A stretch of 64,000 bases of DNA. It comes from a virus. This document shows positions 1 to 64,000 of the stretch, piece by piece. Made by a program: the position numbers and the translations under genes. The DNA lies in the IMG/VR virus record IMGVR_UViG_3300031760_000017. One strand, 5' to 3'. Position 1 is the stretch's first letter, and every line of letters begins with the position of its first letter. Below the pieces are notes generated by a model. It was not told the DNA's origin and did no database searches. It was given only the letters and a program-made list of their open reading frames with translations.

Positions 1-252
1 GAGAAAAAAAGAATTGCTAATTCAAAAGTTAGGTCAACTCTGAAAAAATTAGACCATAATTTTTCTTCACATGGTGCATATAAAAAAATGTATGGACAAT
101 GGGAGATTTGTGATTGGTATTTCTTAGAATCTTGGAAAGAATATTGGGAATGTGAGAAAAGAGCATATAAAAGATTTCCTGAAGTTTATAAAAAACCTTT
201 AAATAAAAAAGAAGCTTATAGAGCTTGGTATAAAGACTATAAAATGAAATAA
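1..252 (+). CDS. hypothetical protein, C-terminal fragment (gene starts upstream of window)
   Basis: Frame 1 is open from base 1 to TAA at 250-252 (...AYRAWYKDYKMK*). No motif recognised. Confidence 0.4.
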   Translation, partial: EKKRIANSKVRSTLKKLDHNFSSHGAYKKMYGQWEICDWYFLESWKEYWECEKRAYKRFPEVYKKPLNKKEAYRAWYKDYKMK

Positions 253-262
253 AATATATATA

Positions 263-388
263 AAGGCATATACAGCAAATTCTCTTTAAGAGATGTGTTG
301 GTTCAAATCCAACATTTGCCGCATGGGCAGATTGGCGCAATGGTTGACGCAAGTGACTCGTAATCACTCTATCTTATTAATATGCCTT
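263..388 (+). ncRNA. circularly permuted tRNA-like RNA (T-arm and 3' acceptor strand lie upstream of 5' acceptor strand, D-arm and anticodon-like arm); Y-RNA/YrlA-like mimic or permuted tRNA-Thr(CGU)
   Basis: Terminal stem AAGGCATAT (263-271) / ATATGCCTT (380-388). T-arm GTTGG-TTCAAAT-CCAAC (297-313). ATTTGCC (314-320) pairs with GGCAGAT (326-332). Then come U8, a D-arm GCGC/AATGGTTGA/CGC containing GG, and an arm AGTGA-CTCGTAA-TCACT (352-368). Hand-folded. Confidence 0.5.
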
Positions 389-395
389 GTTTTAA

Positions 396-467
396 TGGGG
401 TGTCGCCAAGCGGTAAGGCATAGCACTTTGACTGCTACACACGTTGGTTCGATCCCAACCACCCCAG
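396..467 (+). tRNA. tRNA-Gln (anticodon UUG)
   Basis: Acceptor TGGGGTG/CACCCCA. D-arm GCCA-AGCGGTA-AGGC. Anticodon arm TAGCA-CTTTGAC-TGCTA. T-arm GTTGG-TTCGATC-CCAAC. 72 nt, hand-folded. Confidence 0.85.
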
Positions 468-489
468 CTAAAATTGAATGTAGTATAAT

Positions 490-945
490 GTGAATATAGA
501 CGGCGTGTGCGTGCCTAAGCTCTAAAATCGTCGTGAGGAGCCCTCATGGTAACTGCTTCTATAGCTGAAGGTGCCTACTACATCTATTACAATAAGGTCT
601 AGTCAGCCTGTACACAATGGTGAAATGATATATCCGTGTACCGTACTAAAACGTATTAGGTATTGTAATGGCGTTATGGTTCTACCAATACGTTAAATTG
701 GGGAAATGCAAATGGAACTATTTATTATTAGTTGATTCGTTTAACTTAATAAAATCAATCTTTTTTAAGCAATAGTGCATTATTGCTAATGAACGAATCG
801 TGTATAAAAAAGATTGGATTTTAGAACGATTATATGTTGATTGTTTATTAGAAGATGAGGTGCGGAAGCGGGGGCAACGCAGTACCCATAAATGAATGTC
901 TCGGCGTTGAGTAGTCAACTATTAAACAATAAATGTAGAAATCGT
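490..945 (+). ncRNA. long structured non-coding region of unknown class (ribozyme/intron-like or other large ncRNA)
   Basis: No plausible ORF with or without TAG=Gln. G+C is visibly higher than the flanks. Helices include GTACAC (610-615) / GTGTAC (636-641), AACGTATTaGGTA (650-662) / TACCAATACGTT (683-694), GATTCGTT/AACGAATC and AGCAATA/TATTGCT. A crossing pair AAAATCAATCTTTTTT / AAAAAAGATTgGATTTT gives pseudoknot topology. Confidence 0.3.
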
Positions 946-948
946 TTC

Positions 949-1020
949 GCGGGTATCGTATATCGGTTAGTATATTAGCCTTCCAAGCTAAGGGGGTGGG
1001 TTCGATTCCCATTACCCGCT
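949..1020 (+). tRNA. tRNA-Gly (anticodon UCC)
   Basis: Acceptor GCGGGTA/TACCCGC. D-arm GTAT-ATCGGTTA-GTAT. Anticodon arm TTAGC-CTTCCAA-GCTAA. T-arm GTGGG-TTCGATT-CCCAT. 72 nt. Confidence 0.85.
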
Positions 1021-1049
1021 TAACTCACAAAAGTGAGTAAAGATAAAAA

Positions 1050-1156
1050 TGTGCGGTGGTGGAATAAGTAGACACAGACTATATGAAAAGCGAGGTAGCA
1101 TCTGACTCACACAAATTCTCGCGGAGTCATGTGAGGTGTAAATCCTCACCCGCACA
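1050..1156 (+). ncRNA. 107-nt tRNA-like RNA: acceptor, class-II-like D-arm and T-arm, with a 54-nt insert in place of a normal anticodon arm
   Basis: Acceptor TGTGCGG/CCGCACA (7 bp) and U8. D-arm GTG-GAATAAGTAGA-CAC resembles tRNA-Leu. T-arm GTGAGG-TGTAAAT-CCTCAC has a non-canonical loop. In the insert, GCGAG/CTCGC and GACTC/GAGTC interleave, which predicts a pseudoknot. Confidence 0.35.
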
Positions 1157-1162
1157 TTCTTT

Positions 1163-1236
1163 ATACTTGTAGCTCAGACGGAGAGAGCATCGTCCTTCTA
1201 AGTCGAAAGTCGAGGGTTCGAGTCCCCCCAAGTATA
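1163..1236 (+). tRNA. tRNA-Arg (anticodon UCU)
   Basis: Acceptor ATACTTG/CAAGTAT. D-arm GCTC-AGACGGAGA-GAGC. Anticodon arm TCGTC-CTTCTAA-GTCGA (one U-U mismatch). T-arm GAGGG-TTCGAGT-CCCCC. 74 nt. Confidence 0.8.
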
Positions 1237-1239
1237 TAA

Positions 1240-62228: not shown

Positions 62229-62231
62229 AAT

Positions 62232-62384
62232 ATGTCTAAAAATAATATATTAACTTTTGCCACATCTTTTAGAGGAGACAATCTCACTAAAGAAGAAAAA
62301 TGTGCTTTAGAGCATTTGCTTGAAATAATGACGGCTGCGAAGCAACAAATTTTATTAAGAAAATTATTAATAAATAAAATTTAA
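62232..62384 (+). CDS. hypothetical small protein (50 aa)
   Basis: GAGG RBS. MSKNNILTFATSFRGDNLTKEEK... Confidence 0.35.
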   Translation: MSKNNILTFATSFRGDNLTKEEKCALEHLLEIMTAAKQQILLRKLLINKI

Positions 62385-62410
62385 AATATAAAATTTAAAA
62401 TATAAAATTA
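62376..62410. repeat. 14-nt AT-only tandem repeat (2.5 copies)
   Basis: AAAATTTAAAATAT occurs twice plus AAAATTA. Confidence 0.7.
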
Positions 62411-62429
62411 GTATTAGTGAGGTAATAAT

Positions 62430-62768
62430 ATGACTACAGGTATATTTAATGCAAAAATAAAACGTGCTAATTTAATTAAAGATATAGATACGAATAAAAT
62501 AGTCTTAAAATTAGAAATAAAATCAACAGCAGGAACTGCTTGTTTAACATTTTCTATTAATGATTTAATTAAAATTTTTTCTATATTAGAAATTGAAGAT
62601 TTTGATGAAATAATTAATCAACCCTGTTTAGTATTAATTAATGATGGTGTTATGAAAGATATTGGTAATTTTATGTTTCGTCATTATGATTTTATTAAAG
62701 ATCCATTAAAAGAAGAATCAGAATTTTGGGTACTTAATGATCCAATTAGATTAAAAATATATGAATAA
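62430..62768 (+). CDS. hypothetical protein (112 aa)
   Basis: GAGG RBS and an intact ORF. Confidence 0.45.
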   Translation: MTTGIFNAKIKRANLIKDIDTNKIVLKLEIKSTAGTACLTFSINDLIKIFSILEIEDFDEIINQPCLVLINDGVMKDIGNFMFRHYDFIKDPLKEESEFWVLNDPIRLKIYE

Positions 62769-62833
62769 AAAATTTGACAAACCTAGATATAGCTTCTACA
62801 AGAGCCAATGAAAAATTAGTGAGGTAAAATAAA

Positions 62834-63115
62834 ATGATTATTTGCTATAGATTAGAACACAAAAATGGGGATGGATTATTTTTTACTAAAAACGGTGTTA
62901 ATAAAACCAATCCAAATATTATTTTTAATGGTATTGGTTTATGTGCTTTTTTAGATAAAAAACGTTTTTTTCAACCAAGTTATATTAATTTTTTATATGA
63001 TAATGATTATATATTATATAAAATTACATTAAATAAAATTATTCATCAAAATCGTTATGGAGAAATTATTTTTAATTCTGAAGATATTTTAAATAAAGAA
63101 AAAGTTGACAAATAA
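62834..63115 (+). CDS. hypothetical protein (93 aa)
   Basis: GAGG RBS and an intact ORF. Confidence 0.45.
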   Translation: MIICYRLEHKNGDGLFFTKNGVNKTNPNIIFNGIGLCAFLDKKRFFQPSYINFLYDNDYILYKITLNKIIHQNRYGEIIFNSEDILNKEKVDK

Positions 63116-63133
63116 AAAAATTTTTTATATAAT
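63105..63133 (+). promoter_or_regulatory. sigma70-type promoter (TTGACA-N17-TATAAT)
   Basis: -35 at 63105-63110 (inside the end of the upstream CDS) and -10 at 63128-63133. Confidence 0.6.
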
Positions 63134-63139
63134 ATAATT

Positions 63140-63307
63140 GTAAGAAATAAATATTATGAAAGAGAGGTACGGTCCAATGGTTTGAATAGTTGTAACTCGT
63201 TAACATATTGAACCGATATAATATGGAGGGTACTCCAATGGACAGGATAGCTTAAATATTTATTTTTATATGACTAGTCAAGCGGGGCAACTCGCTTGAC
63301 TTTTTTA
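63140..63307 (+). ncRNA. promoter- and terminator-bounded ~165-nt non-coding unit with an internal direct repeat
   Basis: No ORF longer than 10 codons. GAGGTACGGTCCAATGG (about 63164) and GAGGGTACTCCAATGG (about 63226) are repeated. Terminator GTCAAGCG-gggcaact-CGCTTGAC (63277-63300) plus T-run. Confidence 0.4.
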
Positions 63308-63324
63308 TTTATTTATTTTATAAT
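63296..63324 (+). promoter_or_regulatory. promoter fused to the preceding terminator (TTGACT-N17-TATAAT)
   Basis: -35 at 63296-63301 lies in the terminator 3' arm. -10 at 63319-63324. Confidence 0.6.
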
Positions 63325-63357
63325 ATAATTATATTATAATGTGAAAGAGGTAAAGTG

Positions 63358-64000
63358 ATGGTTAAAAGGTTTGAGGTGCACTCTCACTCAGAATTTTCAA
63401 ACATAAGATTATTAGATTGCATTAATAAAATTCCAGCACTTATTGATAGAGCAATAGAAATTGGTTTAAGCGGGATAGCTCTTACTGACCATGAATGTTT
63501 GAGCGGTGCCCCGCAAGCAAACTTCTATGCTCAAGAAATTTTAAAGACTCATCCAGATTTTAAAGTGGCATTAGGAAATGAAATATATTTAACTCCCGAT
63601 AGAGAAATGGGGCAAAAATATTATCATTTTATTTTGATTGCAAAAAATAAAACTGGATTTAGAGCATTAAGAGAACTTTCTTCAAGAGCTTGGATGAATA
63701 GTTATTGGGATAGAGGTCTTGAAAGAGTTCCTACAACATATGATGAACTTGAGGAAATTGTTAATAAATATCCAAATAGTTTAATTGCAACAACAGCTTG
63801 TCTGGGTGGAGAAGTTTCTTCTCAACTTTTAAATCTTATAAAAGCAGAAAAGCATAATGATAAAATAGGAGTCGCCGAAGCCCATAATGATATTGTAGAT
63901 TTTATCTTATGGTGCAAGCGTCTTTTTGGTGATGATTTTTATATCGAGTGTGCGCCAGGTCAGTCAAGCGAACAAATCATGGTTAATAGACGTCTTAAAG
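63358..64000 (+). CDS. DNA polymerase III alpha-type replicase, N-terminal PHP domain (partial, continues beyond window)
   Basis: AAAGAGG RBS. VHSHSEFSNIRLLD...GIALTDHE...YHFILIAKN are PHP-domain motifs. The frame is open to the window end. Confidence 0.7.
   Translation, partial: MVKRFEVHSHSEFSNIRLLDCINKIPALIDRAIEIGLSGIALTDHECLSGAPQANFYAQEILKTHPDFKVALGNEIYLTPDREMGQKYYHFILIAKNKTGFRALRELSSRAWMNSYWDRGLERVPTTYDELEEIVNKYPNSLIATTACLGGEVSSQLLNLIKAEKHNDKIGVAEAHNDIVDFILWCKRLFGDDFYIECAPGQSSEQIMVNRRLK

Follow-up and report, generated by a model that had tools for sequence, protein, structure and literature searches.

We analyzed a 64-kb stretch of viral DNA (IMG/VR virus record IMGVR_UViG_3300031760_000017, GC 30.2%), referred to as the window throughout, which corresponds to positions 15369-79368 of the 84,156-bp metagenomic ENA contig ERZ27256908:k141_3321089. 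The window carries tail, lysis, recombination and replication genes of a large tailed gut phage in which the codon TAG specifies an amino acid. An earlier note on this DNA, made from the sequence alone, had taken this amino acid to be glutamine. Based on homolog alignments and codon-level comparisons, together with the phage's suppressor tRNA, we propose that TAG is very probably read as glutamate, not glutamine.

Genes of the window and phage family

Judged from its proteins, the window phage is a tailed phage of about 140 kb that belongs to the EF1/phAss-like group. Enterococcus phage EF1 and phAss-1 are its nearest cultured or named phages: EF1 matches the window at 20-46% identity over 15 proteins (tblastn), and the N-terminus of the phAss-1 tape-measure protein is 34% identical to that of the window. 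Tail, tape-measure and replication proteins as well as synteny are common to the window and this group, and contigs of relatives measure 119-144 kb. A megablast search of 24 kb against cultured phages gave no match. phAss-1 is the founder of a group of TAG-recoded gut phages and was annotated by its authors with translation table 15 (PMC10607447). Relatives were repeatedly binned with metagenome-assembled genomes of uncultured Bacilli, Anaeroplasmatales and Erysipelotrichaceae, and one RecJ homolog is labelled Candidatus Onthovivens; the host is probably a low-GC member of the Bacilli.

Genes with in-frame TAG are found in several functional groups. The tail genes include a 657-residue tail-module protein with 11 TAG (3779-5752, plus strand; phrog_30026), which retains homology to relatives across its TAGs, a 638-residue tail protein with 15 TAG (5756-7672, plus strand; DUF5048, phrog_32343), a 1563-residue tail/host-specificity protein with 26 TAG (13604-18295, minus strand), which is open when TAG is sense and has a 74% identical relative (L007), and a 2883-residue tape measure protein (18612-27263, minus strand; phrog_4211, 1.7e-58). 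A scan of viral contigs with the 1563-residue protein returned one locus only. The lysis genes encode a 90-residue holin identified via Pfam (36764-37036, plus strand) and a 761-residue endolysin with 14 TAG (37098-39383, plus strand), composed of a GH73 glucosaminidase, an Amidase_2 domain, two PG_binding_1 repeats and an SH3_3 domain. Recombination genes comprise a tyrosine recombinase/integrase of 337 residues with 10 TAG (7690-8703, minus strand), a RuvC-like resolvase of 162 residues with 7 TAG (12811-13299, plus strand), assigned via a weak Pfam match below the curated cut-off and without a match in a PDB search, a Sak4-like/AAA_24 annealing ATPase with two TAG, one of them within Walker A (YG-TAG-PKSGKT; 53255-54295, plus strand), and a RecJ-like DHH exonuclease of 593 residues with 8 TAG (58423-60204, plus strand). 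Three genes of the GIY-YIG type, all on the plus strand, carry TAG as well, namely a homing endonuclease gene that splits gyrB (42712-43452, 4 TAG), a 314-residue protein gene (49147-50091, 9 TAG) and a GIY-YIG/NUMOD3 endonuclease gene (50902-51528, 4 TAG). Further TAG-containing genes encode a 78-residue ORF product with 6 TAG, or 7.7 per 100 codons (open reading frame (ORF) at 13340-13576, minus strand), a 265-residue protein with 4 TAG directly upstream of gyrB (40059-40856, plus strand) and a 284-residue protein with 4 TAG (50088-50942, plus strand; phrog_6721).

TAG-free genes on the plus strand encode a 588-residue GyrB (40849-42615; DNA_gyraseB and Toprim), GyrA and an NAD-dependent DNA ligase (44262-48691), DnaB (54897-56441), an SF1 helicase (61047-62228) and the PHP domain of PolIII alpha (63355-64000). 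A primase and homologs of SPbeta YorF and YorH are also encoded in the window.

TAG is a sense codon

Greedy ORF tiling with table 11 covered 68.7% of the window. Reading TAG as sense raised the coverage to 93.4%, while a control in which TGA was read as sense reached only 70.2%; the earlier note had suggested a density comparison of this type, and its outcome favors recoding. Under the standard code the structural region consists of short ORFs. Once TAG is read through, the two longest ORFs span 2888 and 1564 codons compared with a standard-code maximum of 782. The tape-measure gene contains 71 TAG and no TAA or TGA in 2883 codons, while shuffles of its own sequence contained 151 TAA or TGA on average and 120 at minimum. 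The frame relationships reported before were reproduced. The ATG at 27263 (minus strand) is preceded by the ribosome-binding site AAGGAG, and the standard-code fragments of this gene start at offsets of 1071, 2322, 7053 and 8091 nt from it, all multiples of three. The same is true for the four ORFs between 13604 and 16807 (offsets 4188, 3177, 2346 and 1488) with respect to the ATG at 18295 (minus strand), which is again preceded by AAGGAG. In case of 3779-7672, described earlier as containing in-frame TAG but no TAA or TGA, only the first part held, since a TAA at 5750-5752 divides this stretch into two genes that share one frame.

About 200 in-frame TAGs are spread over at least 16 genes, and homology (Pfam, PHROG and PDB alignments) is continuous across them. 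Domains spanning TAGs include the integrase, Glucosaminidase, Amidase_2, PG_binding_1, DHH, tape measure and holin matches (Pfam/PHROG). The Pfam Phage_integrase match (3e-36) extends across the TAGs of the integrase, as do PDB alignments to XerD and XerA, and the in-frame TAG in its LGHS-TAG-LETT motif lies at 7767-7765 as previously noted. All 47 genes of at least 90 residues end in TAA (41) or TGA (6), in line with what had been proposed, and no case of TAG acting as a terminator was found among window genes. The holin gene carries a TAG at codon 84, six codons ahead of its TAA and inside the Pfam match; this TAG has to be sense rather than stop because the alignment passes through codon 84. 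Further, relatives recovered from independent samples have TAG at the same places as the window, with 65 TAG-TAG pairs counted.

Roughly 2% of codons are TAG in the genes for tail and tape-measure proteins, lysis, recombination (integrase, RuvC, RecJ, Sak4) and homing endonucleases. The genes for gyrase, ligase, DnaB, helicase and PolIII and those of the RNA-ligase cassette contain none. In TAG-rich genes the first in-frame TAG appears early, at a median position of codon 16 (permutation p ~0.02), with codon 3 of the endolysin, codon 5 of the 1563-residue tail protein and codon 4 of the RecJ-like exonuclease as examples, so that the host code would yield only very short peptides from these genes. 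The defining features of stop-codon-recoded phages are all found in the sequence: in-frame TAGs, a gain in coding density, the absence of TAG terminators, a suppressor tRNA, and a concentration of TAG in late and lysis genes. The conclusion that this genome uses TAG as a sense codon throughout, with UAA and UGA terminating, is fully supported.

TAG aligns with glutamate

To assign the amino acid, TAG was translated as X and the residues facing it in alignments were counted, with the real Gln and Glu codons of the window serving as internal controls. As standard-code references we used those nine of 18 related loci (species-representative genomes) that lack in-frame TAG. Across 261 site-by-reference pairs, window TAGs faced E 76, K 31, S 21, D 20 and Q 11 times. 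A likelihood comparison of all 20 residues using empirical substitution profiles on the same alignments placed E first and gave values of -72.7 log units for Q and -81.9 for K. Counting per site, with EF1 added to the nine references, E outnumbered Q at 48 of 143 TAG sites and Q outnumbered E at 10. The corresponding ratios were 224:46 for real Glu codons and 57:95 for real Gln codons; the TAG ratio fits the former and departs from the Gln model with a binomial p of 2e-12. Agreement of 75% or more among at least four references was reached at four TAG sites, and E was the agreed residue at each of them. Individual examples are TAG 7115-7117 in the 638-residue tail protein, where E is present in seven of nine standard-code relatives, and TAG 12997-12999 in the RuvC-like gene, where it is present in 4 of 4. 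In PDB alignments of the integrase, the residues facing TAGs are E, R, N, D and A, which is compatible with Glu though not decisive.

Larger homolog sets gave the same picture. For the endolysin, 112 homologs below 62% identity showed 44% E, 10% D, 8% K and 5% Q in TAG columns. Control columns from the same homologs contained 44% Q and 12% E at Gln codons, and 37% E and 7% Q at Glu codons. Overall, Q is found opposite TAG at 4-5% in standard-code homologs compared with 25-44% at real Gln codons. For RecJ, TAG columns of the 120 homologs listed at 58-99% identity were 39% E, while columns of real Gln codons were 1.4% E. The alignment of TAG-containing proteins to homologs that the earlier note had proposed for identifying the residue was thus carried out for the endolysin and other proteins, and it is Glu rather than Gln that is enriched; its glutamine assignment does not hold up, as Q scores 73-88 log units below E and TAG columns do not resemble those of real Gln codons. 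The eight closest endolysin homologs do show Q at TAG columns. However, this results from recoded contigs having been translated with table 15 by the database, a practice that was confirmed for relatives retrieved with the tail protein, whose genes cannot be translated with table 11. More generally, proteins of these phages are present in public databases as table-15 translations, in at least one case in an NCBI-sourced entry, and have Gln at positions where the evidence points to Glu, for example at the endolysin catalytic residue (P0001-P0008, P0121-P0240, P0249 and others).

A particularly informative position is codon 36 of the endolysin (TAG at 37203-37205, plus strand; GQMCL-TAG-TGYG), where 111 of 120 homologs carry E and eight carry Q. 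In solved GH73 structures (FlgJ and related proteins) this codon faces the Glu of LETGWG, LESGWG or VESGWG motifs, which we take to be the general acid of GH73. PDB entries 2zyc and 3k3t show one and the same FlgJ, but in 3k3t the equivalent Glu is replaced by Ala.

Close relatives were additionally compared at the DNA level using six loci of 56-93% identity. Window TAGs faced TAG 65, GAA 36, GAG 10, CAA 10 and CAG 4 times, and in the reverse direction TAGs of relatives faced window GAA 36, GAG 5, CAA 8 and CAG 2 times. The codon-level likelihood placed E ahead of Q by 88 log units. As it takes two mutations to get from TAG to GAA and a single one to get to CAG, this pattern is due to selection acting on the residue and not to mutation.

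Other members of the phage family served as positive controls. EF1 residues facing phAss-1 TAGs were Q 10, K 6 and E 4, while those facing window TAGs were E 13, D 7, K 5 and Q 0. Loci L021, L022, L026, L027 and L032 place their own TAG opposite window Gln, L020 and L031 place in-frame TGA opposite window Trp, and the loci closest to the window (L003-L009 and L030) place their own TAG opposite window Glu. As read from these alignments, the family holds at least three recodings, which this method separates. Closer relatives, of roughly 50% identity or more, appear to share the Glu reading, as indicated by RecJ and tail-protein searches that covered at least 120 relatives each.

Suppressor tRNA and proposed decoding mechanism

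Four genes for tRNAs were found within the window by ARAGORN, all on the plus strand (Gln-UUG 396-468, Gly-UCC 949-1020, Arg-UCU 1162-1237 and Cys-GCA 1324-1395), and none of them has a CUA anticodon. They form the 3' end of an array of 24 tRNA genes that covers the 8.5 kb upstream and the first 1.4 kb of the window. One member of this array does carry the anticodon CUA. It is located 4902-4975 nt upstream of window base 1 (L006 3536-3609, with the window starting at L006 8511), so that the search beyond the window recommended in the earlier note was successful. This tRNA(CUA) scores 62.8 bits with the Rfam tRNA model and folds into an ordinary cloverleaf. Three IMG/VR contigs (94, 144 and 140 kb) contain the same 74 nt without any change, and a fourth contig holds a variant whose acceptor and anticodon stems have compensatory changes. 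Among the Pfam matches in the window, none was to a domain of a release factor or an aminoacyl-tRNA synthetase.

The first base pair of tRNA(CUA) is C1-G72 (G1.U72 in the variant), compared with G1.U72 in the phage tRNA-Glu(UUC) and U1-A72 in the phage tRNA-Gln(UUG). Position 73 is A in both tRNA(CUA) and tRNA-Glu(UUC), and G in tRNA-Gln(UUG). The D-loop comprises 9 nt in tRNA(CUA) (AGUGGCUUA) and in tRNA-Glu(UUC), compared with 7 nt in tRNA-Gln(UUG). The combination of U1-A72, G73 and a short D-loop that marks a code-15 tRNA is therefore lacking. The D-arm and the anticodon loop (CUCUAAA) match those of the phAss-1 tRNA-Glu(CUC) (loop CUCUCAA) except for position 36, and in a set of 80 phage tRNAs, two tRNA-Glu but no tRNA-Gln are found among the nearest neighbors of tRNA(CUA). 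These likenesses are hints only in favor of a Glu origin; the features of tRNA(CUA) appear to fit a tRNA-Glu, but its isotype is ambiguous. phAss-1 itself has three dissimilar tRNA(CUA) genes (L014 12442-12532 and 12536-12610; L015 5744-5820), one of which is 91 nt long with a long extra arm or insert, while one is Trp-like and obtains its top score with the Trp model.

Glutamate decoding could proceed as follows. The TAG-free genes and the tRNA array would be expressed first after infection, a timing suggested by gene functions. tRNA(CUA) would then be charged with Glu by the host glutamyl-tRNA synthetase (GluRS). The GluRS of Bacillota is usually non-discriminating and accepts C or G at position 36, and the host enzyme may also tolerate the A36 of tRNA(CUA). 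Bacterial GatCAB, which converts Glu-tRNA to Gln-tRNA, needs U1-A72 on its substrate and rejects tRNA-Glu via an extra D-loop base (PMC2811023). Lacking U1-A72 and having extra nucleotides in the D-loop, Glu-tRNA(CUA) would not be turned into Gln-tRNA; GatCAB would leave tRNA(CUA) alone because it fails both of these tests. The charged tRNA would subsequently outcompete release factor 1 and allow late genes to be translated, and these could not be completed until the suppressor had accumulated, similar to the gating model for code-15 phages. Charging by GluRS without GatCAB conversion is a plausible proposal.

Alternative readings of TAG

Several observations weigh against glutamate. Gln codons make up 14 of the 99 non-TAG partners in close relatives, TAG and CAG being a single transition apart and E/Q a conservative exchange. 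Codon usage does not separate Glu from Gln, as the shares of GAG, CAG and AAG are all lower in TAG-rich genes, and one paralogous repeat of the endolysin pairs TAG with CAA. Small isotype hidden Markov models built from 130 phage tRNAs rank tRNA(CUA) as Met (28.7) ahead of Glu (27.3), with Gln and Trp outside the top five, and a blastn search against phages returned a tRNA-Trp of an Acinetobacter phage at 79%, owing to the anticodon and T arms. The proposed charging route also assumes GluRS, GlnRS (glutaminyl-tRNA synthetase) and GatCAB of the host to be those of Bacillota in general. One alternative is a reading of TAG as glutamine, which is the code 15 used by crAss-like, Lak and phAss-1 phages and applied in public-database translations. 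Published phage TAG recodings in the literature searched were all to Gln, distant members of the same family use TAG for Gln, and TAG alternates with CAA or CAG to some extent among close relatives. The peptidoglycan (PG)-binding repeats had been considered diagnostic for this reading: the TAG at 38334-38336 (DGDFG-TAG-NTLKSLKYFQ) does correspond to CAA at 39048-39050 (DGDFGQNTLKALKYFQ), but the pair does not prove Gln, because PG_binding_1 homologs differ at this site (A, K, P, D, T, E). With Q scoring far below E in both likelihood comparisons and scarce opposite TAG compared with real Gln codons, a TAG at the catalytic Glu position of GH73, and a tRNA(CUA) that has neither U1-A72 nor G73, we regard glutamine as very unlikely. 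Ambiguous decoding, in which tRNA(CUA) is partly amidated or charged by two enzymes and selection acts mainly on the Glu form of the resulting Glu/Gln mixture, seems improbable as well. It would account for Gln codons being the second commonest non-TAG partner in close relatives, related phages use Gln, and the indirect Gln pathway does run via Glu-tRNA (PMC2811023). However, the Q share of substitutions at TAG sites is about that at real Glu codons, tRNA(CUA) carries both GatCAB anti-determinants, and the Gln-bearing fraction of an enzyme with TAG at its catalytic Glu would be wasted.

Glutamate is also preferred over any other residue, such as Lys, Asp, Trp or pyrrolysine, for which we see hardly any chance. 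K and D come next after E in frequency opposite TAG, tRNA(CUA) resembles a tRNA-Trp in the blastn search, and ARAGORN labels it 'Pyl' based on the anticodon alone. Yet K trails E by 82 and D by more than 140 log units, W is essentially never found opposite TAG, and tRNA(CUA) folds into an ordinary cloverleaf and obtains a standard score with the Rfam tRNA model. Pyrrolysine was rejected based on this cloverleaf, the absence of pyl genes among the window Pfam matches and the alignment of TAG with Glu. Finally, the fragmented ORFs seen under the standard code are all that would speak for the absence of recoding, with TAGs being real stops in a decayed or mis-assembled element. This reading is close to impossible considering that no TAA or TGA occurs in 2883 tape-measure codons (ca. 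151 expected), that domains span TAGs, that TAG-TAG pairs are shared with relatives from independent samples, and that a tRNA(CUA) is present.

Other features of the window

The integrase gene has one of the highest TAG densities in the window and is located in the tail module on the opposite strand. A CotH-kinase-like gene (PF08757, 6e-28) and its 274-residue neighbor (8913-11014, minus strand) are TAG-free amid TAG-rich tail genes and may be a recent acquisition. A tail-fibre-like gene (11014-12114) adjoins a gene for a 105-residue HExxH protein with one TAG (12107-12424, minus strand), for which only weak Pfam matches below curated cut-offs, to metallopeptidase families, were obtained (Peptidase_M78/IrrE-like and SprT-like).

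The TAG-poor block at 27464-36667 (plus strand) contains a single TAG in each of two genes and encodes a phosphoesterase, a flotillin-like protein, a Major Vault Protein (MVP)-like protein, an RNA ligase, a kinase and a second phosphoesterase. The MVP-like protein has 829 residues and one TAG (30774-33263, plus strand; Pfam MVP_shoulder 5e-23, Vault_3 2e-7), and such proteins are uncommon in phages. A TAG at 32739 was considered as a stop of this gene but is unlikely to be one, as the next ATG is not preceded by a ribosome-binding site and the coiled coil goes on. Beside it lies the gene for a 524-residue flotillin/SPFH protein, also with one TAG (28277-29851, plus strand; Band_7 1e-21). The TAG-free cassette at 33779-36667 (plus strand) encodes an RNA ligase (PF09414) together with a PNK-like AAA_33 kinase and a metallophosphoesterase. 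It resembles a system for tRNA/RNA repair, which may matter where late translation hangs on a single tRNA.

The GIY-YIG gene that splits gyrB is followed on its 3' side by a 60-residue GyrB C-terminal piece (about 43604-43786, plus strand). PolIII alpha is likewise split by a GIY-YIG gene (L002 10525-15624, just past the window end). Rfam searches of the window and the tRNA array returned tRNAs only, with no group I intron at gathering score and no theta/HDV-like ribozyme.

Comparison with known genetic codes

A full-text literature search returned no report of UAG read as Glu in a phage or bacterium. The UAG-only Glu code would therefore be a known kind of recoding with an amino acid that is new among phages as we found them described; the earlier note's remark that the phenomenon is not new applies to TAG recoding as such and not to this assignment. 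Surveys of recoded phages list only TAG→Gln and TGA→Trp where the phage code differs from that of the host (bioRxiv 10.1101/2021.08.26.457843), and the predicted isotypes of 180 phage suppressor tRNAs are Gln, Trp, Ile and Tyr, with no Glu (PMC10879173). If correct, our assignment would add a genetic code for prokaryotic viruses, make GluRS the third host synthetase open to hijacking by phages and establish a concrete, testable tie between the indirect Gln pathway and code evolution. Table 15, as applied by databases, the NCBI 'code 15 clade' and gene callers, would then place Gln at about 2% of late-protein residues, catalytic glutamates included, and such wrong Gln would degrade homology searches, structure prediction and the expression of enzymes such as endolysins.

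We tentatively consider a broader reading, which we would put slightly on the doubtful side, namely that UAG has been set independently to Gln or Glu within a single family of ~140-kb Bacilli phages. The Glu code would then be a one-step neighbor of code 15 and may be common in Firmicutes phages but currently hidden, because pipelines use table 15 for every TAG-recoded phage. Where the host has no GlnRS, a non-discriminating GluRS would first have to glutamylate any Glu/Gln-type amber suppressor, and the first acceptor pair and the D-loop alone would decide on GatCAB conversion.

Code-15 phages (crAss-like, Lak, Garnet/Topaz, and phAss-1 with its 'Phassvirus' relatives) are the closest known systems (PMC10607447, bioRxiv 10.1101/2021.08.26.457843, PMC9523058). 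The window phage resembles them in that its late, structural and lysis genes contain in-frame TAG, its replication genes can be read with the standard code and a tRNA(CUA) lies within a phage tRNA array, with no dedicated synthetase seen. It differs in its likely reading of TAG as Glu and in a suppressor without a Gln-type acceptor end. In contrast to Garnet and Topaz prophages, whose integrases avoid TAG, the window integrase contains 10 TAG, which argues against a role of this protein in establishing lysogeny under the host code. Code-4 phages, which read TGA as Trp (such as Agate, and the relatives L020 and L031 from the family of the window phage), are large phages too and follow the same logic in recoding a stop codon, but differ in both stop codon and amino acid. 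The indirect Gln-tRNA pathway of bacteria without GlnRS, where GluRS charges tRNAs with YUN anticodons and a Glu/Gln-like body and GatCAB then settles Glu versus Gln by U1-A72 and D-loop size, supplies the charging route proposed above; it is a host pathway rather than a recoding system, and tRNA(CUA) would be making use of it (PMC2811023).

With respect to the amino acid, there are eukaryotic parallels. UAG is read as Glu in the nuclear codes of peritrich ciliates (table 30) and Blastocrithidia (table 31), where UAA is reassigned too. As in these codes, UAG positions of the window phage align with Glu, including the catalytic position of GH73, and UAG would be read by a tRNA-Glu-type suppressor with anticodon CUA, as far as the phage sequence indicates. 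The window code is neither table 30 nor table 31, because TAA does not occur inside ORFs and terminates 41 of the 47 genes. While tables 30 and 31 are genome-wide codes of cellular organisms, that of the window phage is restricted to UAG and is used by a virus whose code presumably differs from that of its host.

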